A DNA stretch of 54,615 nucleotides, filler included, from Porpidia crustulata (Eukaryota): the NCBI GenBank assembly GCA_964255105.1. It is 5 parts of 5 records of this genome, joined end to end, with 100 filler letters (N's around TTAATTAATTAA, not from the genome) between each part and the next. Parts side by side here need not be neighbours in the genome. Positions count along the whole stretch, not along the records: positions 21,939 to 32,784 come from CAXUWE010000722.1; 4 more parts are not named here. One strand, 5' to 3'. Shown here one piece after another: positions 1-32,884 of the stretch. Both the position numbers and the translations under genes were made by a program. A model generated the notes under the pieces. It was not told the origin of the DNA. It searched no databases and saw nothing but the letters and a program-made list of their open reading frames with translations. The first letter of the stretch is position 1; each line of letters begins with the position of its first letter.

Positions 1-2
1 GT

Positions 3-7338: not shown

Positions 7339-7671
7339 ACTTCCCGGGATTTCCCTCAACACGAGACATTCCCATCGTCGAACAATGTATTTACCGCTAC
7401 CTTTTCCCCTAAATTCACCGATAGAATCCCGAACACAGATGACCTTGATGACCAACGTACCTTCTACTCCAGCGATTGGTGCATTCTCGTAAGGAACCGC
7501 TAAGGTACCCGAATGAACAACCACTGTAGACTTAGTAATCACAATTCTTCTCAGCCTCGCTCCAAAGTGGCACTTTAGATACTATTTCAAGTCTCTTTAC
7601 ACTCCAATCTCTATCAAATATTCCCTTCAACTTTTACCTTTCAACTCAACATACCCAAACGTTGAACATAC

Positions 7672-9592: not shown

Positions 9593-10872
9593 ATGCCGCC
9601 TCGGGCATCCCTCACAAGCTCATTCTCCGCTTCCGATACCAACAACGAGGTCATTTGCCCGCTGACGAACCACGATGGTTTCAATTGCAGGAAACGCTGC
9701 GTTGGCGTGAGTGCCCTCGCTCATACAGTCTATTTGCATTGGCCGAGTTCTCGTTCCATCTGGTGAGTGGGAGAAATGGGTGGTGACAAGCAATGCAATT
9801 CAGGAGAAGCGCTATCGCTCGATGCAAGAGCACATACGGAGAGCCCACCCAGAGTACTATATCTCGAAGCTCCCCGCAACCGAGGAGAGCTTCCAGCTCA
9901 TGATCAATACTCCACCCTCGGAACGACCTCCACCTCCTCCACCTCCTCCACCAAATAATCCATTTAATGCAGGTGCGGAACAGCATTTGCTAGCATATCC
10001 AAAAAGGCTGACCTGAGTAGTTCATGGACACGATAGAGACGCCCCGCGACGAGATCACAGCCCGCCCGTACCACGAAGGACCTTGGAAGATGCGTATCCA
10101 GCGGCTGCAACGGCAGCTGTTGCGTTGGCACAACTCCATAATCATAGACCGGACTCGGATTGGGAGTCGGAAGCTGTAGGCAATATAAAAAATCACGATG
10201 AGTCTTGGCGATACAGCTAATTGCTTTGCGATAGGATAATGTTTCTGAGAATGAGGCTAAGAAATCACGGATGCAGTCATCTGTGGAACTTCCACCCATA
10301 CAAAACCACATAAACCGGCAGCCAGTATCTCCCTTTCACTCACCTAGGCCACGGGAGCTTTTACCCTCAATAATGACCAGCTCTCCCCCAGGACGTTCCT
10401 CCACATTACCTCCTCTCCAGAGAACCCATTCATTGCAGAAAACCGCGAAGCCAGCTAGACCGCGCAAATCGTCGATAACACAAAATAATAGTAAGCCGAA
10501 GCATGAAAGGACCAAATCAAAAGATCATGTACGTAGGCTCAGCATCGAGGGTAGAAAGGCATTTTCTGCAGAACCACCAACTCTGGCGGCCGTGGGCAAA
10601 AGATGGGAGGATCTTATTGAAGCAGCGACATCGGCCAATGAAGCTGACTCAGACCGGGATCTCACACCGGTTTGGCCCCACTCACGGGACATGGTATATA
10701 TGAAGCTAAATCTCCCCCCCAGATCCCCCAATCTCCCTCGTCCACCAAACGCGCCTCGCTCCCGCCATTCTCCTCGATCAACCACAGCAACGCAGAATCG
10801 TACAAGGCCTCCCCCCTCCAAAACGCCCTGACTCCACCTCCAGCCCGCGACCGCAGCGGCGTTGAGCCTTTC
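9593..10872 (+). CDS. Conserved fungal zinc-finger-like regulatory protein (resembles proteins annotated RfeD-type transcription factor); 3' truncated by linker
   Basis: Spliced ICPLTNHDGFNCRKRCVG|EKRYRSMQEHIRRAHP (Cys/His finger); RRLSIEGRKAFSAEP...GKRWEDLIEAATSA. Introns near 9707-9803, 9973-10020, ~10177-10234 and ~10670-10722. Confidence 0.7.
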
Positions 10873-10972
10873 NNNNNNNNNNNNNNNNNNNNNNNNNNNN
10901 NNNNNNNNNNNNNNNNTTAATTAATTAANNNNNNNNNNNNNNNNNNNNNNNNNNNNNNNNNNNNNNNNNNNN
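10873..10972. other. Artificial contig linker (N44-TTAATTAATTAA-N44)
   Basis: 100-bp spacer with a six-frame stop cassette. Confidence 0.97.
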
Positions 10973-11057
10973 GCGCCCAGTCCCCCCGGTAGGCCCGCAG
11001 CTTCGCGGGGGCGGCGGCCCGGCGGGGCCCCCCCCTGGGGGGGGGGGTATTTCTTCA

Positions 11058-13359: not shown

Positions 13360-15254
13360 TGCCACAGCCAGTTTTCAGTGTAATTATGGACCGATGTGAT
13401 ATGAGATGGTGAGATGATAAGATGAGAAAACGAATACGATTCATTATTTCATGTCCTTCCAGTTCATCTAATACCAGTGAACACCGCATAATGCGAGGCA
13501 CTTTCGCGTGTTTTAGAACTGCAACGTTCCCTGCAGCTAAGGAGCCAAGCAATTGCTCTGGTATTTGAAGGGCGATCGCGTCCATCCTTGGATACGACTA
13601 GCATATGACAATGAAGCTAAAGTACGCACAAAGGCCTCAGGAGCTGTGCAGCCGCCAGTGCCGCTCTAGCCGCTGGTTTGCATAATTGTTGTTAAATATT
13701 TCAAGCAACAAATTCTTCGGGTTGAGGGTCAGCAAATAGAAGTGTCCTTTGGCCAACGTTTGAAATAACCCAGTAAACTCATGATTGAGCCCAATGGTGG
13801 CAATGCGAACACAAAAGCCACAGGTCACGCGGTTAATCATGACTGAGGCTTGTGTAATGCCCTTGATGAGCGATCTATACTTGGCACCGAAACCCTTACT
13901 TGTTGCCACATCTATCATGGACGTCTCTCTCTTTCTTGGAACTCAGGTTCTAGACCCTATGAAAGCTTCTTTCCAACCTGACTAGCTCCGCATCTTCTTG
14001 CCCGATCCCTTTGAGAAGGGTAGGTGGAAGGAAAATTTGAAGGAATAAAACCTTATGACCGAAGTATTGGAATAATATCATCGAAGGATCAACTCGTCCG
14101 GTGATGATTCTCTAGTAAGTCTTCCTAATAGTGCATTCGTCAACACCCTGAGTGAATTTCTACCGTAGAAGCAATTACGAAGGTAGAAGTTCGCCTCATA
14201 GGAAATTCTTGCCACGTCGAAAGTGACGGGTGAGGAATTATGGTACCACAAACGATGTCGCAGACCTGCAAAACTTGGGGCCAGTCAGGCACGGAATGGA
14301 TTCCACTGGAATAGCAATGTAATACCACTAAAGTAAGGTAAGCTTCTTGATTTAAAAGATTTGGCCTAATGACAATACCTTGAAGAGTAATGCAAAGAGT
14401 TCTGACCGAGCGAGATTTGTTCTCGGGCGAAAGAAGAAATAAGGCGAGATCAGTAGACTGGATTCTGGTAGTGTGTGCTGTACTTTGTTAGGTTGAGATG
14501 AGAAGAATTGATTAGATAATGTCCTGGATGTGTAAGGCTTCCCTATGGCATGGTAAGAGGGAAGGAGAGAAAAATTTGCTTGAGTGAGAATGGTATTAAT
14601 GTGAAAATCTGTAAAGGTGAGAAATATAGCGATATGCCTACTTGATTAGATATATAGTACATCAACCTTTGACCTAATGATTAAGGTCTAATCCGCCTTT
14701 TGACCTTGCAGAATCTTGGGATGCGTAAAGTTGTACCTGAGTGTACCTATATTGAGGCGTTTCAGACGTGAATTGAGACACCAGTCAGTCAGTCATGTGC
14801 GAGATGGAGCCCCGCTCTCTTCACCACAACATGTGCTCGATAACATTATTAGCATTGAGAAGGCTCTCTTTGCTATGCTTAGTCTAGTCATAGGCTTCGT
14901 GACTGCTCGAGGCAAACAAAACCCACAACGATAATTACTCGTAGTAAAGAGCAAACCAGGATCCCATGCAGAAGAGCTGCTACAGTGAAGGTCCGTTGGT
15001 CATCCGTCACAAAACCCTAATCTAAAAGTCCGAAAAGAAGTAAAGTGGGTATCACATATAGAGACATGAATGCTGGGAAGTAGTATTCCCCGGGTTGGAA
15101 GCAATGCAACGTAACAAACTCTAATACACGAAGTCCAGATGATTAGATTATTGTTGATCAGTGGACGTGAACGATCTCACGCAGCGTAGAAAAGCGCAAG
15201 GGGGCCATCCACTCGTCAGGAGTCCCGGAAGGTAATAATGGAGCAACACAGTCG

Positions 15255-16133
15255 CTAGAAAGTACTCCAACTCCAGTCTTTCGGCGCGCTGGTGGCCACC
15301 GTCCCCCTCTGGCCCTCCGCGCTCTCCCCAGCTGATGAATGGGCCGTGTTCCCGATCGGCAGTTCCGGTGTGGTTGTCGACTCCGAATCCAAGCTATTGC
15401 TCCTCGACACCCTTTCTGCTTTCCACTCGCGATACCGATCCCAACAGTGCTTGCAAGCACGTGACTGTGATCCATTGGGATGAAATTCGGCATGCTGATC
15501 GAGCGGCGTGGAATAAGCGGAATGGGTATTGCAGAAGACGAGGCCGCAGTGCCGGCAATGGTGTCGCCGCTCGAATAAGGAAAACGCCTTTTGGCAGACT
15601 GGCGCGTCGCAGATTAAAGCGACCGAGTCGGGCTTCCAGTGCTCGCGTGTGGGCAGTCCAGCCATCGTCGGTCGATCATCTTCGGCTACCCTCCCCAGTG
15701 TAGCTTTCTTCTTGCTATCGGCAGTCGAACGCCGGCTCACGGGGCGTCTGCTGTGGGAACCGTCCAAGCTTTCCATGCTTCCATGAACGCTGCGGGGTGG
15801 CGTGAGAGGTACCGGTCGGGACGGTCTTTCCGTCGGTCGTAGCGCAGCTGGTACATACATCGGTGATTTCGGCTTTTGCAGCTGCTTGGTTGCCAACGGA
15901 AGGTTTGGAAACATGGATGCATTTCGAGGTGATGACGGTGATTGATCCATGGGCGTACCCGATACCGAGTTGATGGGTGAGAATTGCTGACCGGCCTGCG
16001 GATACGGTTGTGGATAAGCGTGGGGATGCTGCGCGCCTTGATTGCGCCCTTGAGATTGCTGAGGCGGCGAAACGTACTCCTGTGAGTTGGGAGGCGTCGT
16101 GTATGGTTCGCGGTTCGGAAAACTCGTCGTCAT
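15255..16133 (-). CDS. FYVE zinc-finger protein
   Basis: WKPD...CDAPVC...FSLFERRHHCRHCGLVFC...RACKHC; C-terminal WSWSTF; first in-frame ATG 16133. Confidence 0.88.
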   Translation of the reverse strand: MTTSFPNREPYTTPPNSQEYVSPPQQSQGRNQGAQHPHAYPQPYPQAGQQFSPINSVSGTPMDQSPSSPRNASMFPNLPLATKQLQKPKSPMYVPAALRPTERPSRPVPLTPPRSVHGSMESLDGSHSRRPVSRRSTADSKKKATLGRVAEDDRPTMAGLPTREHWKPDSVALICDAPVCQKAFSLFERRHHCRHCGLVFCNTHSAYSTPLDQHAEFHPNGSQSRACKHCWDRYREWKAERVSRSNSLDSESTTTPELPIGNTAHSSAGESAEGQRGTVATSAPKDWSWSTF

Positions 16134-17619
16134 GATGAGGGCTTCAATGCGATCCACGAGACAGCGGTCGGACTACTCTACACTACGGTAGATGCTTTTC
16201 TGCTGAAGACTCAAGAGGGGTTGGATGAAAAAGCAAGGTCGAGGGGGTCGTATTTACACGTGATCATGAGTCGGAGATTATGCTGCATGTGGTGTTGTAC
16301 AAGGTAGAGTACAAGCTCGACAGCTGTCAATGCCACGTTTCCCAGCGTGCAGGAATGTGATAGCTCTTTTATGACCGACCATGTGTAATATATTGAAGTG
16401 ATGGAAGACGGCAAGAATCGGGGAAGGGAGCCGTCGAGAGATCGTTTGAGCGCTTTGAGGGGTTATGGGGGATCTTGAGACCTGACTTTTGTTCAAATGG
16501 GAAAAAAAACAACCGATAGGCGACTCTACGTCAGATACGAGACCTCTGATACTGAGTCTAATTTAACGGAAACAAAGCATTAATGATGATACTTCCGAAG
16601 AGAAGCGAGAAGGGGAAATTATGTACATGGTGAAGAAGGAAATCATGGAGACTCGGAGGGTGGATGTCGATGGGGGAGTGGATGTGGAAGTATGGGAATG
16701 GGGGGGGGATGCCACCAACATGCTCAATGTGTGTGGTAGGCTGTTAGCCTACCATGGATTTGGCAGTGGAGGCTTGAAAGAGACCCTTTTAGTCTATCCA
16801 CCTCCGACAATGGGGTCAAATCATCTGAGCCTAAAGGGATTTAGAGGCACACTAAGTAATTCCCGGGAAAGTCTGATAAGATTCGATGCGCCTTAGAAGT
16901 TGGACGGAGGATGAAGGAGAGCCGGCAGATGGAGTCAGGTAGTCACGATCGAGGCAATTCGGGGAAATTGTCGCATGCTATCAAATCACTCATGCAATCC
17001 GAGCGTCAGATCAGCATTACAGGGAAATGAATACACGATCGCCACTGCTGTCATTGTACGACAAGCGGAAAGATACGGAACAACATTGCTACATGCGACG
17101 ACGTCGTGGTTGTTGAATAAGGGATGTTGAATGTTGATCTTCCAGTAGTACTTCTAAATTGGCATCAGGAAGAGACACTCTCCCGTCCGCCCCGTTGAAA
17201 CACGTCGTCATCGCTGTCACTTGGGATCCTTGCAAGTGCGCTAGAACGACAACAGTCAGATAAGAACATCCCTGTCGCTCGTGGCCCTCCGACCCCGGTC
17301 GCATCAATCGTCAAACCCCCGCTGAACGCCTCTGAATGGCTGGACTGGCACTGCACGCTTATATGCGGATGTAACACCGGCATGTTGCTAACAAACCCCG
17401 AGTCTACCTCCCATCAATCAACGTCTACGCCGTATCAATCTTGGCTCTCAACAGCTCTTCGCGTATCGATCAAGCTTTTGTTCCCATCATGATGAAATGT
17501 ACTCGCGGTCTAGGATTTTCTTCGCAGCAAGTCTTGCTCTCCTGGGTTATGCTTTGGTTTTCTCCTTGACAAAAGTAGTTTCTCTTTCATAACTACTTCA
17601 CTGCTTCAAAGCACCCATC

Positions 17620-18594
17620 ATGACCGGGGGAAACAATCCTCCTGGAGAAGGTGGCTCCTGGCGACATCAACTTGGCTCAGACAGTTTCCCTGTTGAAGCA
17701 GACCGCTATCACCTCTATGTTGGCCTCTTCTGCCCCTTCGCCCATCGCGTCATGATAACCCGTGAGCTCAAAGGTCTTCAAGAATTCCTACCCATGAGTA
17801 TTGTAAAAGCCTACCCAAAAGACGGTGGGGGTTGGCGTTTCCCTGCCAGTAATGACGAATATCCTGGCAGCACAATTGATCACCTTTTTCACTCGGAATT
17901 CTTGCATGAAGTCTACTTCAAATCCTACAAAGACTACAAAGGCATATACTCCGTCCCAGTCCTGTGGGACAAAAAGACGAATCAGATCGTCAATAATGAA
18001 AGCGAAGATATCATGCGTATGCTCAATACCGCCTTCGACGACCTCCTCCCCAAAGGAAGTCTACAGCACGTTCTCAATTTTTACCCTGCCCACCTACAAT
18101 CTCAGATCGAAGAAATCAGCTCTTGGATGATACCCGATCTCAACAACGGCGTCTACAAGGCCGGGTTCGCCGACAGCCAATCCTCCTATGAGCAGAATGC
18201 CCGTACAGTCTTCCGCACACTCGACCGCCTCGAATCCATACTGAGCCAATTCCGCAAAACCTCCCCCTACCTCTTGCGCCAAATGTCAGAAATCGACATC
18301 AAACTCTTCACAACCCTAATTCGCTTCGACGTCGTCTACCAGCAACACTTCAAATTGATGCTGCGCAGCATTCGGCATGGATACCCGCACCTGAACCGGT
18401 GGATGAAGCACATTTATTGGAATTTGCCGGGCGTGAGGGAGACTGTCAATTTCAAGCACATCAAGGAGAATTACACAAAGAGCCACATAAGAATCAACCC
18501 GCTGGGAATCACGCCGCTGGGCCCGGAGCCGGAAGTGGAGATTTGGACCGAGGAGGATGAGAGGTGGCGGAGAGGGTTGTTTGGGGCACTTTGA
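17620..18594 (+). CDS. Glutathionyl-hydroquinone reductase / omega-like GST (Ecm4/YqjG family)
   Basis: RYHLYVGLFCPFAHR, VPVLWDKK, NNESEDI, NNGVYKAGFA, RFDVVY..HFK, HIKENYTKSH..INPLGITPLGP. Confidence 0.92.
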   Translation: MTGGNNPPGEGGSWRHQLGSDSFPVEADRYHLYVGLFCPFAHRVMITRELKGLQEFLPMSIVKAYPKDGGGWRFPASNDEYPGSTIDHLFHSEFLHEVYFKSYKDYKGIYSVPVLWDKKTNQIVNNESEDIMRMLNTAFDDLLPKGSLQHVLNFYPAHLQSQIEEISSWMIPDLNNGVYKAGFADSQSSYEQNARTVFRTLDRLESILSQFRKTSPYLLRQMSEIDIKLFTTLIRFDVVYQQHFKLMLRSIRHGYPHLNRWMKHIYWNLPGVRETVNFKHIKENYTKSHIRINPLGITPLGPEPEVEIWTEEDERWRRGLFGAL

Positions 18595-20933
18595 TGCGCT
18601 CGCCCTGCATTGATGCTACGATGCCACGATATGGTGTAACGACGTAACGATGATCCATTACGCAACGATCTAGAAATTAGTTTGTATAATTTCGAAACGG
18701 TTATCCATTGCCATATGAATCCTTATACGTACGTCTCCCTGCCTAGACCGCCACTTCACATCCCCCTTTGAACGAGAATTTTAGGACCTTTCGCAATGCC
18801 AGTGTACAGACATTGTTTCTAGCACAACAAAGACTATAGGGTGTCTATAGTGCAAAGGATATCAGCAGGTCACTAAAAACCAGCTTCTCAATCCTTCTCG
18901 GTTCTCTTGCCTCCTCTGGGCTGTTAGGCTCCTGCTTGATCCTCTCCTAAATCTGACTCTGCTGTTATGATCTGATTGGGCTTTGGTTTCGTGAATTGAG
19001 AAGAGGGATTGAATGGCATCCTTGAGCTCGGTCCAAAACATCAACTTGCCACTCTGTTTTCTTCTTCGTCTACAGCGTCTTTCTTAGGTGTCTGTGAATT
19101 TTTCACCGAATTGTTGAGCGATCCTGCGCAATTTTCTGTGATATTTGGCAATCCAATCGGGCTAGGCAATCTGGATTTTAAATCATCAATCAGATGTCAG
19201 TAAGTATTGACCATGGAAGAACTTCCGCACGACAGGGCAATCAAGGAATGCTTTCCTACAATGATATATCTATCTTCCGATATCTCTCAGGAAACTAACA
19301 ACATGGCGCAATCTAGAGTCTTCCATCAACCAGTGATACCGCAAGAACGTATGATCGACATCTCTACTACAATAGGCAGCGCGAATGGCCCAAATCGCTG
19401 TCTGTATGCCGTGGGACGCGGCAGCAACACAAAGCTTTTCAACATCTTGGAAAGACTCGTCAGCTCCAGGCGTGGACAGGCTACATACAGCGGTACGATC
19501 GAGTTCCAGCAGTCCCCCCAGGCCAATACCGCCCTCGAGCGTTGCCTTAATGATTTTCTTACTACGATCACAATTTTTGCCTTTTGACACTGCTTCTTTT
19601 GCTAGCTTGGCTGGTATGTCTCCATGATAGTACGTATTATCAACGATTGACTTGAATTTTCCTGCCATGCTAACCAACAATCGTAGAGTGACTGAGCTAC
19701 ACAGCCAGAGGCTTATAACCCTTGTCCTTCCTCAGGACTGACTAGTCATAGCACAAGTCGAAAGATGGGATCGGATGATTCTATGTGTCGGCGGATGGCA
19801 TAAACATGTGTATAGTCACTGATCATTTGCCAAGATTCATGAGCAGGAAATGATACCAAATCAGATATTCCTCTTGATATGGCAATTTCTAAGTCCCATA
19901 GATGTACATTAAACAAACCCAATGCGCCACAACGCGAGCCTCCCTTCATAATAAATTATAAGACGCCGACTATGAGCTTCAAGATATCCCCGTAAAGTAA
20001 GATGGCCATCTTCATATACTGCGTTGTTATACATCTATAAATTTCATAGCCGACAGCTGTGTTTCACCCAACGGTAGCATCACTATGGGAATATGCCATA
20101 TGCCTCAAATCTAGGTCCACCTCCTCCTTGTACCTGCATGTAGTGCACAGTATCCCAAGTACCAATGAAAATAGATTAGGTAGAAACTTCACAGATCGAT
20201 ACACTATTAAATAATTCAATCATTCCTCCTGCTAGGGTACTATCTCTAATGACCAGCCCACCCATGTTGGGACATGTATGAGAGTCTACTACGATTAGGA
20301 AGGGAATTGGTGGTCATGGGATATGATCGCTGTAGGCATGATTCGTTTTTGGAAATGGGGAGAGAGTGAGTTAATTGAGGCGTCGACCAAATAGTCTCAC
20401 TATAGTGTCCGAGCATAGAGAATGGGATAGAGCTTGAGCCTATGATGGAGGAAGTAGTAAGCATATTGTGACGCGGGAACAGGAATTAAGCCTTGATACC
20501 CAATGGTGCATGGAGAACTAGATTTCGTATCAACAGTTGCTACTCACACGGCCCTGGTTGAGCTCGGATGAAAATCAGCGGTTCGTCCGTAATTTGTTCA
20601 AATCGTCCGAAACACACGATTCAACATCGCCGTGACTGCATGGCTTCTAATCGACCTACTTCTGGGCTTAAATAGTCTACGCCTTACGCCATGAGAAGAC
20701 TGAAAACAACGGATTTGTCAGACCCGCGGACCATGGCGCATTCGGCCGACGTTCCTTCAGTGAGCAATACACTGGTTCCCCCAGGCCATCATTTTTGGGC
20801 AGTGTTGATATAAAGAACCTACATTCCCGTTCGCTATCTCATTACCGACAAGCCATTTAGTTCTCTTCTCCACAGACCTAAAGAATAGAAAAATCAAATA
20901 GTCTCGCAAAGTTTATTCTCACGACGCACAACA

Positions 20934-21838: not shown

Positions 21839-21938
21839 NNNNNNNNNNNNNNNNNNNNNNNNNNNNNNNNNNNNNNNNNNNNTTAATTAATTAANNNNNN
21901 NNNNNNNNNNNNNNNNNNNNNNNNNNNNNNNNNNNNNN
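21839..21938. other. Artificial contig linker
   Basis: 100-bp N/TTAATTAATTAA spacer. Confidence 0.97.
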
Positions 21939-24900
21939 GAGTGAGGTAGTGCGTGTAAAGGATGCCTCTGTCGCGGAGGAGGTCTTGGGTGAGGTAGGGC
22001 ATTTTGGCCACGCAGGGACTTAGGTATATTTGGGCGTGTTTGAGATTGGGGGTGTGGACCTCTGGTGCTGTGGTGGTCATGGAAGAACGATCCGTAGGTT
22101 TTGGTGGCCCAGCTTCTGGGATTTTGTTGGCTGACATTGTACGATAGCCGGGAGGATAAACCATGCACATGTTAGGTGATTGAGTCCCAGAAGTTGATTT
22201 GGGGTTGGACCCTATTATATCAGGAGATGGTAACATGTGGCTAGTCCCAGGCGTTGCGATCTGCGATGGCCCTTCGCTAATGCGGTCAGGTGTAGTCTCC
22301 CGGTCTTGGGATGAGGTTTCAACGCCTACCCGATACCGTCTGGGTTTCTCATAGGCACCTATCGGGATCTTGGGGACTAGAAATCGTTCAGGGGTCGATG
22401 CTTGCATATGCCGTTCATCGGGTTTCATTGGAGGTGTCTCTCGTGGCCGAGTGGTGGTAGAGGGATTTTGAATGACTTTCAATGTTGCAGCAATTGAAGT
22501 ATCCAGCCGATGCTCGCTTTGATTTTCTTCAGCGTCAAAGGATCGCCTTGCCCTTTTCGATTGTATTGCTTCATCGCCGGAGGTAATCTCTCCACTAACT
22601 GTCTCTTCAATCCTGCGCTTACGGGAAATTTGACAAGATCCTTGGGCAAGATCTTGAAGGATTGTCGGTGGACCTCTTACGTCGGTGATCGTGGGCTCAA
22701 CTTCGTAATACTTAGCTCTGAAGAACCGCCTCGCCTTCTTGAATTGCGTCGCTTCGTCGCTAGAAGTGACCTCTTCACTGGAGATATCCGCAATCTTCCG
22801 TTTGACGTGAGACTTGTGAGATGTAGTTATTAGGCTGGGTAAGCTATGGTTTCTTGCAACACTATCTAAAGCTGCTCGAAATGGCGATGAAGTTGATAGC
22901 GTGATGTCGGTAGAGTCACTGGTCTCCAACTCCCCTGAAATAGATCTTTTCAAGACATTGCCATCCTCCAATCGATACTCTGAATTCTTCATTTCCTTGG
23001 TGTCCATCCGGATCATAGGTGGAACCTCTGACTTACTTCGACCACGACGAGCGGATCCTATAGCTCGATCATACTCCATCCCATCATCCATGTCTTGAGA
23101 ATTTTCCCATGCAGCAAGGACACCTGTAGCACCTCGGTCACCCTTTTTTAGCTGCTCAACCCATTTTGCAGTATCTTCAGCCAGATCGTCGGATGGGACT
23201 AGCTTAGCTGCATTAGCCATGTCTTGTAATTCATTAATCGTCACGGCATCTCTCCAGTCCCTATCCCAATGAATCTTCAAAACGCGTGGGAATCGTAATG
23301 AAAATGTTGTGCGGTTGCCTGCTTTCTCAAACCCTGCGCCCATAACCTCAAAGACAAAAGGTTCTTTGAATACTGCCATCATGTCAGAGACACCTTGCTC
23401 AAGCTTCATGCCAAGAGCCGCTGCCTCTGCCCGAGACTTCACTTCAACAGCTTTAAACTGACCTAGCTGATTCAGGCTTTTGATGTCTTCTGGCTTGATG
23501 CAGAGATTCAGAGCGTCAATGACAATGAAATGTGGCTTTGCACCATCCTGAATCACCTTGTCTTTATTTGTCAGACAGCCAATATGAAAATGAGTCCACT
23601 TTAGTTTTAGCCCGATAAATTTCTTGGCCTCAACAACGTCATAGCCTGCACCCACAACTGCAAAGTCCGCAGTATCTCCCAAGCCTTTGATGTAGTCCTT
23701 TTTCAGCTTCATCCAACAGCTGGGAAAACCACCAGCTGACGGCTTAGTGCTGATATAAGGTTCGTCGGACGGTTTCAACACAAGTCCTTCCCACCGCATT
23801 GCACAGGCGCGAGCCAGTGCTTCTTGCAGGTAGCTTGGACCGCTTGGTGAAGATAGATCAATCACGGCTCGGATACCCAATCCTGTGCGGCCTGCTATAG
23901 GTTCTATCAATTTCTTTAGATACCGTCTTCTGCGTCTATGTGGTTCATCAATAAGGGAATAATCGTCGACAAGCATAACGTCGTAGAATATAATCATAAG
24001 ATGCTCAAAATCATGGGGTCTAATGTAGTTTAGCTAGCTTATCAGATAATTGACATAGGAATTAACTCACTGGGAATCAAAATTCGTACCCAGAAAAGCA
24101 CCAGACCGAGAAACGTGCTTCCGTATTTTACAAAAATCAAGAATGTTTTTTTCCCTATCGCTCCAAACGACCAATTCCCCTTCCAGAATGCATTTCTTGG
24201 AAAAGATACAGTCTTCGTGGCCAATCCGGAGGCACTGTCTGATCGACTCGTGCAACCCGGCCCGATCGACAGTGGAATCCTTGCCGCTTTTGGAGAATAT
24301 CTTAATCCACTTCTCTCCAGCGTCGAGGTCAACATGAATTTGGCAATACTCGCCATCATACTTTCTCTCGACGCTCACATTCCGCCGCCCAAGCACGCCG
24401 ACGGCATGTTTGACGCTCCGACCCACAAGAAAACTAGGTCTACCAATCTTCATCCCAACCTTGGGCGTAAGAGCATGAGTCGTACTCGAAGCCAGTTGCA
24501 CCATGCCATTTGTTGCATCCGGGTGAGGGATGGACGTCGCGGAGCCGCGAAGCATGCCGATGGCCGCTTCGAAAGTATCGTAAACCTTTATATACTGTGG
24601 CAATTCCGGATGAAGGCACTTGAGAACCCACGTCAAAGGTAAGTCGAGAGCTCCAAGGTCCTTCATCAGTATCCTTGTGAACCATTTGGCCTCCCGGGAT
24701 TGTAATCGCCTGTAGATGGACTCCAAGATTTGATCCACCTCCTTTGGATCTTCGTTTTCTTTGCTCTCCCTCACATCGGGCGCAGAGAAACGATTTCTTG
24801 CGGCCAACTTCGCCAATGCACTATCTACCTGTTCCAAAGTGGCTTGGTTCTCAGGGTTCTGCATGGGAAATTCCGATTCCTTGAGTGCCCGCTCCACACA

Positions 24901-25236
24901 TTCCCCAAGGTCTCCTCGACCATGGTCGTTCCACTGGTCTAGCATCCCCCATCTCCCAACGCCTAGACACAGACATCTTCTTAGTCTTCTTGACAACGAG
25001 CGTGCTTTGAGGCTGAAGACACGGTCCGTCCTTCGCTCGGGAAAAAAGGTAGATAGCAGAGCTACCGGATCGATTTCGAGTGAGTGAAGAGTAATCCTAT
25101 GCCCAAGAAACCATTGCTTTGTCCTCTCCCGTATCCTATACTGCTTACGAGTAAGAGGAACCAAAGGTGGGTCACAAATGCAGTACGATTCAATGTCCGA
25201 CAATAGTGTACAAAAATCATAAAACTGAAGAGGCAT
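21939..25236 (-). CDS. ATP-dependent DNA ligase (divergent, ligase IV-related), 3' truncated
   Basis: Motif I ERKYDGEY, ILEGEL, IFYDV, WEGLVLK, WMKLKKDY, LRFPR; N-terminal DNA-binding domain. Intron 24020-24070; ATG 25236. Confidence 0.9.
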
Positions 25237-26242
25237 CACGAGAGTGCGCAATCACCAGATATCTTGTAATTGTGCAGGGCGTCTTTCAAACCCAACGACT
25301 GCAAAGAAAGCAAATGCGGTAGCAATATATACTGATAAGCCATACCGACCAAAAATATAATGAAAACACCCAAGAGAGGTGAGTCTCAATGTTGTGGAAA
25401 TGAAGATAGGTGATGGAGAAATGAAAGAAAAATAAGAATGAAGTGAAAATGTGGTTAACATCATGAAGACGTCTTTGTTTGGTAGCGGTATTCACGTGAT
25501 CATATGCTCCCGCTTAGCGCCATCGTATGCAGATTGCCAGATATCCAAAAGGGCAGGTGGAAGCGATATGGTGATAACTAATGTGTCAGTATAGGACCGT
25601 CAACGTCTACAAGGAAAAGACGTGGATTTACTTCAACACTACGATTCTAGTTAACGCATTCCGAGACACTGGCTTTCATTCATAGAAGCAGCTGTGACAA
25701 TCGGCAGCAAGTCGCCAATGTGCCGCATCCAAAGTTTCAAACCCGATTCACAGTTGACGAAGGAGCCAGTGTCATGAGTGAGATAAATCTCGCGATCACA
25801 AAGTCACTCAAGATTGAATCTGCACGAATTGGAGAAACATGATTGGTATCCGCAAGGACTAGAAACACCCATCCATCCACCCCGAAACGCCTGATTCCCT
25901 CGACAACCGGAAAATCCATCTAGGAATAACAAATCCCCCGTGATACGAATACAAGATTGACCCCGTCAGCGTGCTCCAAGATTTGCGCCTGTTTACCCCT
26001 GGTGATGCCGCCCTGAAAGTGATCGATTTTCGCACAACCAACTTGTCCGTTTTCTTGTATGCTGTCTCCCTTGAAAATTTTGTCAGAGCCCAATACCAAC
26101 AAACCCCGAGTGTCACCCTTCGTCAAGTAGTGCCTCCGACTATTCAGTGCAAGTCGGAAACATAAAGGTTAAACACCGCTGTGATCCTAGTCCCTAGAGA
26201 ATTTCATACCACGATTTGAACGCCGGGCCCTAAGCATTCTAG

Positions 26243-26743: not shown

Positions 26744-28135
26744 TCAGATCGAAGTAGCGAGGTTGGCGCCATCCACGATTGCAGGGACGTCAGTAACGAC
26801 CTGAAGAGCACAGACGGATGTGCTGGACCGAGCCAAGTCTTGAGTAACGTTGTCATTGTCACCCTTTACGCTCTCGCTCTCCCAGATCTCAACCTCGGGT
26901 TGCTCTTGAACAGCATTGTCATTCTCCATCGCAGCGTTGGTGGTACCCTTAACCTGGCTAGTCGAGGTCAGAAACCCGTTCCAACCACTTGCGTGTTCGG
27001 CATTGTTGTCAATGCTTGGTTGGTAAAGTGATGAGCCTACCACAGCTCCAGAGGTGCTGGCAACTTTCTCGTTGACATCAACAGCTTCTTCGTCGGCGGG
27101 GACAACGAAGAAGGATGAAGCATCACAGTCTTCAGAATAGAATTCTTCAGCGTTGAGGCTACCAAGGGGGGTGCGAGGCTCATCAGTCATGATGTCGGCC
27201 CTCGAGGTCGTGACGTTGCTAGAGGATGCAACGTAGCCAGGAGGTGGGATATTCTCCTTGCCGCGATCATTCTTCGCGGCAATACGGCTCTCATCTTCGG
27301 AGGAGATATCGAGAGTCTTGGTAGAGTGTTCCATCATGTTGCCAGCATACTGTTCGTCGGTGTCTTCATAAACATTGAATATCCATGTTCTCTTGACGGG
27401 AATGGCCGACTTCAAGTTGATGTCCTCGGCAAGCAGATTGGATTTGGAAATGGTGCCCGTGGAGGAAATAGCGGCATTCAGAGAGATAGGCGAGCGAATA
27501 TGAGAGTCAGCATTAGCGAAAGATGGAGGATCGACGCGGGAATAAGAGGCCGAAGACACACGACGACGTGACAATAGACCAATACGCTTCTTTGTGGGTG
27601 ATCTACCTGCAGGAGCAGGTGCCGACGAATGTTGGAGACGTCGGCTCTTATGAGCTCTATCCGAAACAACTGGTGTTGATGGAATCTCCGCTTTACGCTT
27701 CAGGAGCTTGGCGGGAATGATAATAGGCCGCTCAACGACAGCAGGGGTAGGAGAAGCGTTAGTAAGTACATAATGGTTCTTGTTGGCCTCGGCGTGGTCA
27801 TTGGCGAAAGTCTTAGCTTCGACATTGGAAGTCTTGAACTTCTTATTAGACAACAAGGACAGGATGGCAGGGTCAATATTTTCCGAATTTTCGTCCTCGA
27901 AGTCGTGCGGTGCATTTCGCTTGCGAGAGGATGGTTTTGCAGTGGCGTTAACGGTAAGAGCTGGACGTAGTGTAAGTAAACAATAAGAGTAACCTTGAAG
28001 AATATGGGTTATATTCAGTGAGCGAGTTAACATACCAGCTTGCTGGTTCTTAACATCTACCAATCTACGAAGCCTCCCACCACTCACAGAACCGAGAGCT
28101 TGTCTAGTCGAAAACATCTCGGCAAGCACTGACAT
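26744..28135 (-). CDS. Disordered protein with D-box, ABBA, KEN and D-box motifs; Acm1-like APC/C pseudosubstrate inhibitor candidate
   Basis: ATG 28135; in-frame intron 27961-28035. Motifs RQALGSV, FNVYEDT, GKENIPP, RTPLGSLNAEEF; Cdk site RSPTKK. Confidence 0.7.
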   Translation of the reverse strand: MSVLAEMFSTRQALGSVSGGRLRRLVDVKNQQAGMLTRSLNITHILQGYSYCLLTLRPALTVNATAKPSSRKRNAPHDFEDENSENIDPAILSLLSNKKFKTSNVEAKTFANDHAEANKNHYVLTNASPTPAVVERPIIIPAKLLKRKAEIPSTPVVSDRAHKSRRLQHSSAPAPAGRSPTKKRIGLLSRRRVSSASYSRVDPPSFANADSHIRSPISLNAAISSTGTISKSNLLAEDINLKSAIPVKRTWIFNVYEDTDEQYAGNMMEHSTKTLDISSEDESRIAAKNDRGKENIPPPGYVASSSNVTTSRADIMTDEPRTPLGSLNAEEFYSEDCDASSFFVVPADEEAVDVNEKVASTSGAVVGSSLYQPSIDNNAEHASGWNGFLTSTSQVKGTTNAAMENDNAVQEQPEVEIWESESVKGDNDNVTQDLARSSTSVCALQVVTDVPAIVDGANLATSI

Positions 28136-31040
28136 TTTGAGTATTGGTGTGTGGAAGTATTGACTTGATTGTAGAGTTGCAACAATCGTTTGTTGTGGTG
28201 AGGTTAGCGAGTGTAGTGTTAATGCTGCTAATAAACACAGTCTTAGAAGCAAATACAAAAACCTCGTCGAATTGATGATAGTGATTAAGGCAGTAGATCA
28301 CAACAAAAACAAAGGCAAGCGGTGGAGTGAAAGCAGTGCCTAAAGAGTGAGGAAGAAAGGTGGAAGCAAGCTGGATGTTATTGCTCCCAGAGCCCCCTTG
28401 GGAGTTTCACAGGCGCAGCGAGGCAGCACGTAGAACGTGGGGGGAGGGGGACACGCTATCGGGAACACGTACAATTGAGCGTGATGTAGCACTACTGCGA
28501 GTGAGTAGCCTCAGTTGGTAGAGCGCGTTCAAGCGTGAGTTGGCGTGGCTTTTCAGGTGTGGTCTAGGCAGCTGTAGGGGGATTGGCTATGTTGGCTTAG
28601 TTGAGAAGATTGGCAATGCTCGATGACGATGGGTAACCGCTGAGCTTGTTGTTACAGGCAACTTGGACAAGGGTAGAAACCTGGGAGAAAGTTATGTAGG
28701 AATGATGGAGGAATTCAGAGGTTCAGCAGGTTACAAGTAATGCCCAATGATTATGCTCCTGGTGTTGCCCATCTGGTGTTGTCCGGCATAGTATGGTACG
28801 GTACGGTTCGTTCACTGCTAACAGAATCTTACGCGCCGACGTCGCGTTTTATCGTCCAACACTTCCTTGCCTTCACCACATAAGTCACCACACACAGGCT
28901 TCGTCTGGTACTCACAATGCAGATACAGAAACTGCCTAAAGCTCGTTGCGTTCCAGTTCAAGAACCCAAGGTTTCGAACATAAGCCTCACACTTGTCTGC
29001 CTCAGGCGCCAATCCGTGGTCTCGAGTATCGAAAGTTTTGTAACATCGAAAAGCCCGTGTACGCTTGATCAATGCCAAATTCCAGAAGAGAGTGCCGTAC
29101 GGAATTGAAGTACATGTTGTTTGAAGCCAAGTTTGGCTCCTGATTACCGCCGCACTGCTATCTACGGGCAAGATTTTCTCTCTGCATGATATACTTTCTC
29201 TCATGTTCGATTCAGTGCCTGAATCCCAATAAGCTAACGTCAAACCATTCCAAGTGCCTTTGTGGCAGTTTGTGACGCGTTTGTGGAAACTTCTGGATGT
29301 CCCAGGTACACTTGATATTACTACAGCATGACCGCTCAACACTACGCGTTTCTTTTTCACAAGTCTTCTCAACCTTCATTGCCCACTACCAAGGCCCTTA
29401 CGATTCTTTGATTGTTGCAAGGCTCCCCTTCCCCCCCTGCGCCACGATATTCCGTGCTCCCGCATCGTGGCATACATCTCGTTCACGGGCTTTATTATTG
29501 GATCTCGTCTTTTCATTCCTATTATAGAAGACCTTCTTCCAGCTCTTCAAACCTATAGAATGTGTCTCTTTACTGTATCAGCGATAGTAACAGGCAAAGT
29601 GTAGCAATGATCCACTTGGAAAATCCTCCACAGCCTTTTGAACGAGATCGGGTTTCCAGAGTGTGTTGACGGGTCATGCATATTTTTTTAGCTGTCAAAA
29701 TGATGTTTGAAACTCCTTACCTTTCCTGAACGGTACTACCGTCCTCGATTTATATTCAGACTAACGAGTTCTTGGTACGGCCTCCTTTTTCAATTCGAAC
29801 TAAATTTTCGATTGACTTATCTCTGTTGACGCCGTAATATTGTGAAAAGCTCGTCTATAGCCTGGCACATATCCGTCAATGGATTGAAACAATAATTCTT
29901 CCTTGCTAATCCATCCTTGGTTGACATCTTCTTCCAAAACACCTATTACAACAGCTGTGCACCAACCCTGAGTGGAACAACCTACCACAGTACTGCCTGG
30001 TCCTGTCTCGAATGGTATAGGATGTGGTGCCCAATCGCTTCGATAGAGAGATTCCCAGAACCCTGTGCTACCGCTCTCCCTAAAGCAACGCGATCCATAG
30101 TTGATGTTGCCACAGACTTGCAGAATTTTAAACCAACTCCACACCAATCATCGATAGTCCATAGATGACGTGCCTTAGTACTACTTACTGCCGCGAGGTC
30201 ACATTGCCTCGCTGTACATGAATCTCCGGAATCATAATATGTTCTTTCGGATTTAATGCTTAGTCGGGGAAATGCTCGGTCTAGCTTGATCAGTTGCACA
30301 AGGAATTTCGGTTCGAGTTTGAGTACCGATATATGTTGAGATTCATCGGGTTTGGTGAATGTTTTACAGGGTGAGCTCATCGTTTCGCCATACAAACTGA
30401 GCACCAAGACTCCGTTAGCGTAAAGACAGGAAAGTATTGAATACTCCATCTTAAACTCCGGCCTGAGAATTTATGGTCACCTTCGTGTAGTAAAGCTTGG
30501 CTGTATATATTATTTTCGTCAGCAGCCTCAGCAATGATAGCTGCAGTAGGCCAGGGGGAGAAAGAGCGACATCAGAAACGTCATTCAGGAATTGAATAAC
30601 ATAGTTATGCATTATCAAAGAGAGCATCAGATACTCAAGTAATGAACAGCTTAGAATTTAGCATGATGTAGACTGCATCGCACCCTTCCTTTCTCACAAA
30701 CGCATATAAAGCTTCATGTCTTTCATCCTGTCGAAGGTAGCGATGAAAGTCTGTTGAAAGCGGCAAGACACGTAAGATCTTAGGTTTTCACTCTCTCGTT
30801 CTTAAATTTGATGATACGTATCTAAGACTTGCATTATGGATGGACCGTGATGCCGCTTGAGCAACCAAACGTCTACCGCCCAAAATTCGACGATAATAGA
30901 TTACCATAGGGTATCATACTAGCCTGTAATAGAAGTGTTTACAATCAACAATAGCATATGATATAATGACGCCCACACATTTCATGGCTCTCGACAAAGG
31001 GGATAGAAGAGAGGCTTGAGGATGGTCCAAATTTCTGACC

Positions 31041-32784
31041 ATGACGATGGAAAAGCTTCTGAGGGAGTGGCGGCAGGATGCCATCCACAAGCATCAATAC
31101 GAATCCGCCATATACGTTGGAGACAAGCTACTTGCTCTCACAGGTGAGCATTCCCAGGTGAATATCCAAATGACACGCTGATTTTCGCCAGGGAATGCCA
31201 ATGACGCATTCTGGCTTGCTCAAGTCCACTTCTCCACTGGCAATTACACACGAGCCCAAAGCTTCCTTGCGAAACACAACCTCATCGACCATAGCCCAGC
31301 TTGCAAATACTTAGCCGCGCACTGTCAGATCAAACTGTCCAAATTCGATGAAGCTCTCGATATTCTCGGGGATAAGGATCCAGCACACCTTCTTGCCACC
31401 TCGAGCAAGGCCAGACGGAAATTGCAGCACACGAGTGGGAACTTACGCCATGGTACACACAAAAATGGTAGAACCAGTGGCAAGCCTGACAGAATAGACG
31501 TGAGCGAGGAGAGGGAAAGAGAAAGCCTCTCGGACATCAAACATGAAGCAGCTATGTGCTACCTTCGAGGGATCTGTTATGCCAAGCAGAATGCCTTTGA
31601 CCGTGCCAAAGAATGCTACAAAGATGCGGTTCGGATAGATGTTCAATGTTTCGAAGCCTTTGACCAATTGATGAAAAACTCCCTCATGTCCCCAGATGAA
31701 GAATGGGCTTTCCTGGAATCTCTCGACTTCGACTCAATTTCCCCCTCCTCTGATCCCAATACTGCCCAGGAGGCGGCCCAGTTCGCCAAAATGCTCTATA
31801 CAACCCGGCTATCGAAGTACAAAAATCCCGCCGAATTTAACCACGCCACCGAGACCCTCTCTACCCATTACAATCTCGCATCAAATCCAGACCTGTTACT
31901 GTCAAAGGCGGATCTTTTATTTACTCAATGCCGATTCAAGCAAGCGCTTGCCATTACAACCTCAATCCTCAGCACGGACGAATACAATTTTGCCATTTAC
32001 CCCCTCCACCTCGCTTGTCTACACGAGCTCAACCAAACAAATAACCTTTTCCTCCTATCTCACCGTCTCGCAGACATGTACCCCGATGAGCCAGCTACAT
32101 GGCTCGCAGTCGGCATCTACTACCTGAGCATCCACCAAATCGCCGAAGCCCGTCGCTTCTTCTCCAAAGCGTCAATGATGGATCCCCACTTCGGTCCCGC
32201 CTGGATTGGCTTCGCTCACACCTTCGCTGCAGAGGGCGAGCACGACCAAGCCATTTCCGCCTACAGTACGGCCGCCCGCCTCTTTCAAGGAACCCACCTC
32301 CCCCAACTCTTCCTCGGCATGCAGAATCTCCAGCTTAACAACATGACTCTCGCGCAGGAATATTTGAACGCCGCGCACCAGCTCTGCCAGACTGACCCTC
32401 TACTCCTGAACGAACTCGCCGTCGTATTCTACCATCTCGACCACCTCCCCCAGGCCATCGAGCTCTTCCACCGCGCTCTCGCCACCGCCGCTGACATCAA
32501 CTCCGATCCCCGTGCCTGGATCTCCACGCGCGCAAACCTAGGGCATGCCTACCGCCGCCAACGTGACTGGGCCCTCGCATTGTCCGAATTCGAAGAAGTT
32601 CTCCGCCAAGGCGGTCCCGACGCGGGGATCTTCACCGCCAAGGGTCTCGTGCTCCTGGAAATGGGCCGATGCTGGGACGCCGTCTGCGCGTTCCACGAGG
32701 CGCTGGCGGTCGGGCCGCAGGATCCGATCGCCACGGATCTGCTGTCCAGGGCGCTGGAGGAGAACGCCAGCGAGCAAGGGTGGG
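31041..32784 (+). CDS. CDC16: Anaphase-promoting complex subunit Cdc16/Cut9 (Apc6), 3' truncated
   Basis: LREWRQDAIHKHQYESAIYVGDKLLALT (intron 31144-31191); TPR repeats ARRFFSKASMMDPHFGPAWIGFAHTFAAEGEHDQAISAY. Confidence 0.93.
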
Positions 32785-32884
32785 NNNNNNNNNNNNNNNN
32801 NNNNNNNNNNNNNNNNNNNNNNNNNNNNTTAATTAATTAANNNNNNNNNNNNNNNNNNNNNNNNNNNNNNNNNNNNNNNNNNNN
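32785..32884. other. Artificial contig linker
   Basis: 100-bp N/TTAATTAATTAA spacer. Confidence 0.97.

Follow-up and report, generated by a model that had tools for sequence, protein, structure and literature searches.

Restraint of APC/C-Cdh1 is known to be exerted by Acm1 in budding yeast and by Emi1/Rca1 in animals, whereas in filamentous ascomycetes only control by CDK (PucA) has been described (Paolillo 2018). Since A. nidulans has no obvious homologue of Emi1, Acm1, or Rca1 (Paolillo 2018), the niche for a filamentous-ascomycete inhibitor is open. PucA alone was reported to be both necessary and sufficient for the inactivation of CdhA at G1/S in A. nidulans, with no redundant pathway (Paolillo 2018).

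The architecture of Acm1 is laid out in He 2013. Its A motif occupies residues 61-70; a helix then runs to residue 80, and after it come a KEN box of the KENxxP form at residues 98-100 and a D-box (DB3) at residues 119-127. According to the same source, the N-terminal D-box (DB1) is a Cdc20-specific degron, 15 residues between KEN and D-box suffice for the binding of one Cdh1 molecule, and Acm1 with its central KEN and D-box mutated reportedly becomes a substrate. Residues C-terminal of the D-box, termed the D-box extension, reportedly block processivity via Apc10, as stated in a later study (eLife 2025, citing Qin 2019). Here we describe a gene of a lichen-type fungus whose predicted product carries the same classes of motif in the same order.

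The gene and its predicted product

The gene was found in a window of 54,615 nucleotides (filler included) from Porpidia crustulata (GCA_964255105.1), which is the whole stretch of DNA that was analysed. All features described below lie on the minus strand, and the gene is adjacent to the Cdc16/APC6 gene. The ORF (26744-28135) is open throughout, with a read-through length of 463 aa. It contains a candidate in-frame intron of 75 nt with GT..AG ends (GTATGT...CAG; 28035-27961), corresponding to read-through residues 35-59, and the occupancy of its 25 codons among 86 aligned homologues is only 0.11. This low occupancy points to a mature protein of 438 aa. As delimited from the ORF and sequence, exon 1 (28036-28135) would start with the ATG at 28135-28133 and hold codons 1-33 plus one base, and exon 2 (26744-27960) would include the TGA stop. 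Homologues with annotated gene models read ...KNRQN-A[LTI]-P... across the predicted splice point. Residue numbers throughout follow the read-through numbering (463 aa) and include the intron codons.

The AlphaFold2 model of the protein is mostly disordered, with a mean pLDDT of 51.7 and 272 of 463 residues below pLDDT 50. Only two stretches are modelled with confidence: an ABBA motif with the helix at residues 260-273, and an extension that follows a D-box. No Pfam family matched the window protein at E <= 10. Foldseek likewise returned no match between the model and the PDB at E <= 10, which is expected because the model is disordered.

These properties bear on the name under which homologues are filed. 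UniRef names homologues as thymidylate kinase, and those inherited names are all that speaks for this reading. The preliminary description had warned that any such label would be wrong for lack of a P-loop, and we agree: none of 86 members matches any thymidylate kinase Pfam family, and a Walker A motif occurs in only 1 of 387 family proteins. The predominance of disorder, the empty Pfam result for the window protein, and the empty Foldseek result weigh against a kinase in the same direction. The thymidylate kinase reading is refuted as far as sequence analysis reaches, and the probability we leave to it is negligible. The database name should at least be corrected.

Motifs, conserved blocks, and their co-conservation

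Read directly off the sequence, an N-terminal D-box, an ABBA motif, a KEN box, and a second D-box occur in that order and agree with the preliminary description. The N-terminal D-box RQALGSVSG (28079-28105) is a candidate true degron. Its family consensus is RQPF[AG]xLDG, and R11 is invariant in a 13-row cross-class alignment; in a tally over the family RQPFAPLDG was counted 62 times and the form in the window was unique. Adjacent to it is a conserved RLxxLxxxKNxQ block (28040-28075), in which L22, L25, K29, N30, and Q32 are invariant among 13 cross-class sequences. Beyond the predicted intron lies NSENIDP (27869-27889), a KEN-like xENxxP motif with the family form [DN]xEN[IV]DP, in which E85 and N86 show no variation over 86 rows and P89 is conserved in at least 90% of them. 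The KEN receptor is also used by NEN, GxENxP, and DQEN variants, according to sources that include He 2013.

Two conserved regions separate these N-terminal motifs from the central ones. The AGRSPTKKRIGLLSRRR block (27560-27610) joins a conserved S-P site to a basic stretch; conservation is at least 90% at A176, G177, R178, S179, and P180, and G[RK]SP is present in 324 of 357 family proteins. The RVDPP ... P.S..AA..(G)T blocks (27458-27538) have a mean share of the commonest residue of 0.84, with R200, P203, P204, P216, S218, A222, L223, and T226 invariant or at least 90% conserved. The several SP/TP Cdk sites claimed earlier amount to six S/T-P sites in the window protein, at residues 128, 130, 154, 179, 215, and 322.

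The central motifs begin with WIFNVYEDT (27359-27385), an ABBA or A-motif whose core FNVYED (27379-27362) fits the published Fx[ILV][FY]x[DE] and corresponds to F[DE]I[HY]E[DE] in the family. Its conservation share is 0.83, and across 86 sequences drawn from several classes conservation reaches at least 90% at W251, F253, I255, E257, D258, and T259. A helix is predicted by AlphaFold2 directly after the motif (residues 260-273; 27317-27358), and the residue blocks at 251-270 have mean pLDDT of 84-91. There follows an acidic and serine-containing block, TLDISSEDE (27290-27316), with L275, D276, S279, D280, and E282 at least 90% conserved. The KEN box RGKENIPP (27242-27265, with KEN at 27259-27251) fits KENxxP. 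The D-box RTPLGSLNA (27149-27175), within the region RTPLGSLNAEEF (27175-27140), has the family form RxPL[GA][DE][LM][DN][AV]; the published D-box consensus is RxxLx[D/E][hydrophobic]xN. Downstream of it lies the conserved extension EEFYSEDCDASSFFVVPA (27095-27148), and the residue blocks at 321-350 reach mean pLDDT of 77-89 in the AlphaFold2 model. Two aromatic residues at +11/+12 of the D-box are found in 354 of 369 family proteins. In the window protein, F253 and K293 are 40 residues apart and K293 and R321 are 28 residues apart.

The family to which this protein belongs is spread across Pezizomycotina. A profile gave 611 hits, including NCU07771, CTHT_0050460, and CHGG_10777, none of which was found mentioned in the paper main texts that were searched. 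Onygenales, Chaetothyriales, Sordariomycetes, and Dothideomycetes were among the groups represented by 20 members looked up by name; these were drawn from the 150 best-scoring of the 611 hits, and none was from Eurotiales or Aspergillus. When the central module alone was submitted to the ESM Atlas, the best hits among named clusters were retroviral SH3 and Gag-Pol clusters (0.82-0.84, 64-74 shared features), which we judged to be noise.

The central motifs form a cassette that is ordered across the family as WxF[DE]I[HY]E[DE]T, then KEN[IV]PP, then RxPLx[DE][LM]. Of 387 stored family proteins, 376 contained the corresponding pattern, F.[ILV][FHY].[DE] ... KEN ... R..L, a count of sequences rather than independent lineages because near-identical cluster members are included. 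The 11 proteins without it are fragments, gene-model gaps, or near-variants (FDIYEN, FDIRED, FEILEE). Across the 376 proteins with the pattern, the spacing from ABBA to KEN was 35-48 residues, with a median of 40. Co-conservation of the motifs in orthologues, on which the preliminary description had made its reading depend, was found across Pezizomycotina classes, and K293, E294, N295, P298, R321, and L324 were invariant in 86 sequences. The share of the commonest residue was 0.83-0.86 in the ABBA and KEN blocks, 0.37 in the linker at 299-315, and 0.26 over residues 348-410. Motif positions are invariant or nearly so, and linkers are poorly conserved.

Short linear motifs are degenerate, and the conserved islands might bind partners outside the APC/C, with the likeness to ABBA, KEN, and D-box motifs being coincidental. 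In separate shuffles, the single motifs did recur: ABBA in 139 of 7,740, KEN in 436 of 7,740, and R..L in as many as 5,576 of 7,740. However, three APC/C motif classes appear here in a fixed order, and the ordered pattern was obtained in 0 of 19,350 residue shuffles of family proteins. The flanks also fit the consensus of each class, with proline after KEN, P3 proline, P6 acidic, and P7 hydrophobic residues in the D-box, and E/D at P5/P6 of the ABBA motif. Coincidence is accordingly an unlikely explanation. The family protein is very probably an APC/C coactivator-docking protein whose cassette docks on the coactivator. Three APC/C-activator docking motifs in fixed order would make it a good candidate for a regulator or an early target of the APC/C.

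The last conserved element is a C-terminal patch, EVEIWESESVK (26864-26896), and [ILVF][WFY]ExxS occurs in 327 of 369 family proteins. This patch raised the idea of a securin-like inhibitor of separase, either a second or the true securin. It would have D-box and KEN-like degrons at its N terminus, and the role of separase pseudosubstrate would fall to the Glu patch E[IV]E[IL]WES. Securins share only N-terminal KEN and D boxes and an invariant Glu in a conserved patch (Cromer 2019), and the pseudosubstrate of human securin is described in the literature as EIEKFFP. The family protein resembles securin in its disorder, its candidate N-terminal degrons, and its conserved Glu-containing patch. 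There is also a weak language-model resemblance, in that an Ascomycota cluster at rank 7 in the ESM Atlas (score 0.77, a lead only) has PF04856 Securin in 55% of its members. Nonetheless, the securin of C. globosum is XP_001225358.1 (Cromer 2019) and the family member CHGG_10777 is XP_001226044.1, so securin is a separate gene in that species. None of 86 members matches PF04856 at E <= 1. The separase-binding segment of securin, moreover, lies downstream of its pseudosubstrate motif according to published descriptions, whereas the family protein appears to have no long conserved segment there: beyond the EIWES patch only a short tail of low conservation remains (share 0.15, occupancy 0.52). 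We rejected securin as the main reading on the accession mismatch and the absence of a PF04856 match, and consider it even less probable than coincidence.

Inhibitor or substrate of the APC/C

We propose that the gene product is an Acm1-like pseudosubstrate inhibitor. It would be a 438-aa, largely disordered nuclear cell-cycle protein whose central module (residues about 251-347) presents the ABBA motif and helix, the KEN box about 40 residues later, and the D-box with its extension about 28 residues further on. Given this spacing, one molecule could fill all three degron-receptor sites of one coactivator WD40 propeller. The partner would most likely be Cdh1, and binding as a high-affinity pseudosubstrate would keep APC/C-Cdh1 in check, the role that Acm1 plays in budding yeast. 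The N-terminal D-box and xENxDP motif may be real degrons that remove the protein in mitosis, presumably through APC/C-Cdc20. The conserved S-P sites could couple the protein to CDK activity. That inhibition of this kind, possibly convergent with Acm1, is the main role seems to us somewhat less than an even chance, and we rate the explanation taken as a whole about the same.

The presumed partner is consistent with this proposal. The residue equivalent to I311 of ScCdh1 is Ile in 32 of 32 Pezizomycotina Cdh1 rows versus 0 of 10 rows from other eukaryotes. At the K333 equivalent, 28 of 32 Pezizomycotina rows have R, K, or H, and at that of P374, 29 of 32 have Pro. These contact residues were mapped by hand on the alignment, and the mapping was cross-checked on published D-box receptor residues. 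On this mapping, Pezizomycotina Cdh1 retains yeast-type A-motif contact residues. In the Acm1 A motif, the P5 Glu is the partner of K333 of Cdh1, and at least 90% of 86 family rows have Glu (E257) at P5 of the ABBA motif.

The inhibitor model has no need of the AGRSP...RRR, RxDPP, PFSxDAAL.GT, and EIWESxSAK blocks, which counts against it, as does the reported sufficiency of PucA in A. nidulans. The presence of several conserved blocks outside the cassette fits a high-priority, early-degraded substrate of the APC/C, the true function of which would reside in the AGRSP...RRR, PFSxDAAL, and EIWESxSAK blocks. The A. nidulans genetics point the same way in leaving little room for a second sufficient inhibitor of Cdh1 (Paolillo 2018). 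Known substrates also offer a precedent: cyclin A2 and Clb5 are described in the literature as relying for their early destruction on an ABBA motif alongside D-box and KEN-like degrons. Further, 3 of 86 members weakly match PF16500, the cyclin-A APC/C-binding region, although these matches fall short of significance by any threshold (best E 0.018). Set against a substrate are the three motifs in the order and spacing of Acm1, followed by a conserved D-box extension. A second, N-terminal set of candidate degrons is already present, and no cyclin box or other effector domain was found, the window protein matching no Pfam family at E <= 10. We regard an early-degraded substrate as a serious possibility that falls clearly below an even chance.

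Pseudosubstrate inhibition would have consequences beyond this locus. It is quite possible, though less likely than not, that filamentous ascomycetes have their own family-wide pseudosubstrate inhibitor of Cdh1 (or Cdc20), with the motif order of Acm1 but without detectable homology to it. If so, the family either diverged to an extreme degree from a shared ascomycete ancestor or assembled an ABBA-KEN-D-box inhibitory cassette convergently, and nature would offer in its conserved D-box extension a second instance of processivity blocking directed at Apc10. A conserved gene of single-exon scale that is uncharacterised and misnamed, present in Neurospora and Chaetomium as well as in many lichen fungi and pathogens, encodes a textbook tri-motif cassette, which opens the question to direct testing.

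Comparison with known systems

Among substrates, cyclin A2 is like the family protein in that P4 of its ABBA motif is His (FTIHVD compared with FDIHED in the family) and in having a non-canonical xEN KEN box and D-boxes. Unlike in cyclin A2 and Clb5, no cyclin Pfam domain was found in the family protein, and the motif order differs. Among inhibitors, the ABBA-KEN-ABBA cassette of Mad3/BubR1 and the Emi1/Rca1 proteins are described in the literature as inhibiting coactivators through several pseudosubstrate degrons in a disordered region. In contrast to these, the window protein, with no Pfam families, has no TPR/Mad3-Bub1 domain, F-box, or zinc-binding region.

The preliminary description had suggested a distant orthologue or analogue of Acm1. 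Orthology was not borne out: a search of all PDB chain sequences with a 27-member family profile gave three matches at E <= 10, with neither Acm1 nor securin among them, although its HMMER filters may drop weak motif-only matches. The Acm1 chain of structure entry 4BH6 was presumably among the chains searched. The three matches were polyubiquitin (E 0.29, via KEGIPP), a 24-kDa NADH dehydrogenase subunit (0.6), and a deaminase (1.2), and we judged them to be at chance level.

Several features set the family protein apart from Acm1. Together with the lack of detected homology, its length, the missing CDK site at KEN, the sparse 14-3-3-type motif, and the extra blocks weigh against the inhibitor proposal. 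Acm1 is about 209 aa long, and the protein described here, at 438 aa, is about twice that length. Unlike in Acm1, no CDK site overlaps the KEN box, as KENIPP is without Ser or Thr. Whereas Acm1 has a phospho-dependent 14-3-3 site, RxxS/TxP occurs in only 129 of 357 family proteins, and the window protein lacks it; the idea of a 14-3-3 site (RRxSxP) was dropped because it is not conserved. The AGRSP...RRR, RxDPP, PFSxDAAL.GT, and EIWESxSAK blocks are strongly conserved extras. The KEN-like xEN motif is far N-terminal here, but lies between the A motif and KEN in Acm1.

The likeness to Acm1 resides in the motifs themselves. Both proteins have an N-terminal D-box, then an A/ABBA motif with a helix, KENxxP, and a D-box, so that the order proposed earlier on the model of Acm1 is confirmed. 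The spacing is similar as well, at about 37-40 residues from the A motif to KENxxP and about 21-28 from KEN to the D-box. F253, K293, and R321 stand where the Acm1 motifs start at 61, 98, and 119, a spacing resembling the central inhibitory region of Acm1 as given in He 2013. A conserved stretch after the D-box, disorder, and CDK sites are likewise common to both. Analogy or convergence with Acm1 is as likely as distant homology. Were inhibition to hold, the family would provide, beside Acm1, a second natural case in which to study how a substrate becomes an inhibitor through the order and spacing of its motifs and through D-box extensions.

The candidate gene and its neighbourhood

The minus-strand ORF at 26744..28135 starts with an ATG at 28135 and encodes 463 amino acids on read-through, the numbering used for residues here. 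The preliminary description had noted an N-terminal D-box (RQALGSVSG, 28105-28079), an ABBA motif (FNVYED, 27379-27362), a KEN box within RGKENIPP (27259-27251) and a central D-box stretch (RTPLGSLNAEEF, 27175-27140), all of which we located at these minus-strand positions in the window sequence; the several SP/TP Cdk sites it mentioned correspond to six S/T-P sites counted in the protein. A 75-nt in-frame stretch, GTATGT...CAG (28035-27961, minus strand), was read as a putative intron because its 25 residues are missing from homologues with annotated gene models; occupancy at these codons was 0.11 across 86 aligned rows. With the predicted intron removed, we read the mature protein as 438 amino acids.

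The neighbours are ordinary housekeeping genes. Directly downstream lies an ATP-dependent DNA ligase (21883-25251, minus strand), which contains an intron because its two Pfam domains, DNA_ligase_A_N and DNA_ligase_A_M, are split over two ORFs. About 3 kb from the candidate gene's 5' end, on the opposite strand and pointing away, is an orthologue of Cdc16/Cut9/APC6, an APC/C TPR subunit (largest exon 31182-32840, plus strand; Pfam ANAPC3 and TPRs; E 1.5e-143 to S. pombe Cut9). Two minus-strand stop-to-stop ORFs between these genes, 28818-29375 (185 aa) and 29982-30470 (162 aa), had no Pfam match. At positions 1-20000, Pfam identified a WLM metalloprotease (3-1205, minus), an F-box protein (1566-2726, minus), a mitochondrial carrier (3588-4886, plus), a zf-HIT protein (5878-6750, minus), an alternative oxidase (8349-8885, plus), a multicopper oxidase (11927-12988, minus), a FYVE protein (15255-16172, minus) and a GST (17593-18594, plus).

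Conserved islands and the ABBA-KEN-D-box cassette

Across the 86 rows of the family alignment, conservation formed islands separated by poorly conserved linkers. In order, these were an N-terminal, D-box-like RQPF[AG]xL; RLxxLxxxKNxQN; KR...[DN]xEN[IV]DP; AGRSP..KR.G.LSRRR; R.DPP; PFS.DAAL.GT; W.F[DE]I[HY]E[DE]T; a predicted helix at residues 260-273; LDIS.D.E; R.KEN[IV]PP; R.PL[GA][DE][LM][DN][AV] followed by ..[DE][FY][YH].[EDG]G.D..S...VP; and, near the C-terminus, E[IL]WES.SAK. Residues E85, N86, A222, K293, E294, N295, P298, R321 and L324 were invariant, and W251, F253, I255, E257, D258 and T259 were at least 90% conserved. The motifs are co-conserved in relatives, with the key KEN and D-box residues in the former group and the ABBA residues in the latter. 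The C-terminal patch (residues 414-424; window 26864-26896) was present in 327 of 369 proteins and matches no known motif class.

These forms were compared with published motif definitions (He 2013/Alfieri 2017/Zhang 2019). The family ABBA form, F[DE]I[HY]E[DE], can be set beside the defined Fx[ILV][FY]x[DE] and cyclin A2's FTIHVD, with His at P4, and KEN[IV]PP beside KENxxP. The upstream [DN]xEN[IV]DP recalls the NEN, GxENxP and DQEN variants described there as sharing the KEN receptor. The central D-box, RxPL[GA][DE][LM][DN][AV], departs at P9 from RxxLx[D/E][hydrophobic]xN, where small A/P/S residues are favoured at P3, but agrees with it at P1, P3, P4, P6 and P7. At the N-terminal D-box (28079-28105, minus strand), P4 is Phe in almost every relative, within RQPF, whereas the window protein has Leu. 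In the family tally of this motif RQPFAPLDG occurred 62 times and the window's RQALGSV was the sole canonical RxxL form; RQALGSVSG is a lineage-specific shift towards the textbook D-box.

We searched for the ordered cassette as F.[ILV][FHY].[DE], 20-70 residues, KEN, 10-80 residues and R..L. We found it in 376 of the 387 collected family proteins, a count of sequences, with near-identical cluster members included, and not of independent lineages, and in 0 of 19,350 residue shuffles of family proteins. Where the cassette was present, ABBA and KEN were 35-48 residues apart (median 40). The 11 remaining proteins were N-terminally truncated fragments, had gene-model gaps or carried close variants (FDIYEN, FDIRED, FEILEE). 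It is unlikely that the islands serve to bind partners other than the APC/C, given three motif classes in a fixed order, each with its own flanking preferences. Judged from these motifs, the cassette probably docks on an APC/C coactivator. The original observation is confirmed, and its significance strengthened.

Distribution and naming of the family

The window protein had no Pfam match at E ≤ 10, while a word-seeded search returned 446 relatives at E ≤ 1e-3. Among the best 120 of these, the closest non-self relative was 57% identical, and all 17 organism-named rows came from lichen-forming genera such as Xylographa, which belongs to Lecanoromycetes, and Lasallia, Cladonia and Umbilicaria. 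A 27-member family profile scored against 1.84 billion representative proteins gave 611 matches at E ≤ 1e-3, of which 325 reached E ≤ 1e-30. Named representatives among the best 150 of the 611 (Elasticomyces, Geosmithia, Remersonia of the Chaetomiaceae, Trichoglossum, Trizodia, Vezdaea, Phylliscum, Fonsecaea and several Onygenales) show that the family spans Pezizomycotina classes. All named representatives of these best 150 matches fell within Pezizomycotina, and no Eurotiales species was among them. Model-species members are NCU07771 (N. crassa), CTHT_0050460 (C. thermophilum) and CHGG_10777 (C. globosum), none of which was mentioned in the literature texts searched.

Many homologues carry the UniRef name thymidylate kinase, and one carries it at NCBI. 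This identity is refuted: 0 of 86 members matched thymidylate kinase families at E ≤ 1, a Walker A pattern was found in 1 of 387 family proteins, the AlphaFold2 model (86 sequences) had a mean pLDDT of 51.7 and scored under 50 at 272 of 463 residues, and Foldseek found no PDB match for it. The earlier view that there is no P-loop and that the label is wrong was borne out, and nothing found supports the name.

Probable coactivator docking and comparison with Acm1

On the receptor side, we back-translated a short Cdh1 WD40 motif and scanned metagenome contigs, which yielded an intronless Cdh1 ORF. Among the relatives of this ORF are Cdh1 proteins from named Lecanoromycetes; one of them, P0468 of Xylographa bjoerkii, matched human FZR1 (E 7e-159) and yeast Cdh1 (1.5e-134) more strongly than Cdc20 (about 1e-108). 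Positions were taken by eye from the alignment to full-length yeast Cdh1; as a check, the published D-box receptor residues R253, L255, D256, P258 and F286 aligned with K/RVLDAP and F/Y, as expected. At the A-motif contacts that tell yeast Cdh1 from Cdc20, 32 Pezizomycotina rows had Ile at I311 (32/32, against 0/10 in other eukaryote rows), L, F, Y or M at L325 (32/32), R, K or H at K333 (28/32), T or S at I344 (30/32) and Pro at P374 (29/32). K333 partners the Glu at P5 in the Acm1 motif (Alfieri 2017/Zhang 2019), and the family has Glu (E257) at P5 in at least 90% of the 86 rows. These residues are compatible with Cdh1 as an ABBA receptor in these fungi, short of proof. A second metagenome Cdh1 ORF (L012:1554-3596, plus strand; 681 aa) has a Ser/Pro/Leu-rich insertion of ~55 residues that separates the GGGTADR blade from DTGSQVC in its WD40 domain; this is either a genuine loop or an in-frame intron left unspliced.

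We tentatively favour the sequence-based reading of family members as mainly pseudosubstrate inhibitors. They might instead be mainly APC/C substrates, a reading nearly as likely, in which true function may sit in the non-cassette blocks: cyclin A2 and Clb5 are destroyed early through an ABBA motif joined with KEN-like and D-box degrons (Alfieri 2017/Zhang 2019), and 3 of 86 members weakly match the cyclin-A APC/C-binding region. A securin-like role is very improbable. N-terminal degrons and a conserved Glu patch agree with the loose definition in Cromer 2019, and a language-model search gave an Ascomycota securin cluster at 0.77, a lead only; against this, PF04856 matched 0 of 86 members, the C. 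globosum securin of Cromer 2019 and the family member carry different accessions, and the tail beyond the Glu patch is short and unconserved, whereas in securin the segment that binds separase comes after the pseudosubstrate motif. As to inhibition, Paolillo 2018 reports no obvious Emi1, Acm1 or Rca1 homologue in A. nidulans, and therefore the inhibitor niche is open. The same paper reports the cyclin PucA alone as necessary and sufficient for inactivating CdhA (Cdh1) at G1/S, no other pathway acting redundantly, so any inhibitor's contribution there would be limited unless PucA-CDK-dependent.

In He 2013, Acm1 has an N-terminal DB1 acting as a degron specific for Cdc20, an A motif (61-70) with a helix after it up to residue 80, NEN (90-92), KEN (98-100) with P103 and the CDK site S102, DB3 (119-127), a 14-3-3 site (pT161) and a K motif; a 15-residue gap between KEN and DB3 is sufficient for the two to reach a single Cdh1 molecule. 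Unlike Acm1, the family has no S/T-P site overlapping its KEN box, a 14-3-3-type site of the form RxxS/TxP was found in just 129 of 357 family proteins and is absent from the window protein, and the latter is longer, with extra conserved blocks. A search of PDB sequences with the family profile recovered no Acm1 chain at E ≤ 10, and membership by homology is therefore not established. For the proposed distant Acm1 orthologue or analogue, this search gave no support to orthology, while motif order (F253, K293, R321) matched and spacing was similar (40 + 28 residues in the window protein versus 37 + 21 in Acm1). As in Acm1, there is a separate N-terminal D-box motif, here a candidate degron, and the ABBA motif precedes a confidently predicted helix; the ABBA motif with its helix and the stretch after the central D-box are the only two confidently modelled segments. 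That conserved stretch has paired aromatic residues at +11/+12 in 354 of 369 proteins, and the Acm1 D-box extension is reported to block processivity via Apc10. The resemblance is, on sequence features, architectural: these are conserved, uncharacterised and mislabelled Pezizomycotina proteins with a central ABBA-KEN-D-box module of Acm1-like order and spacing.
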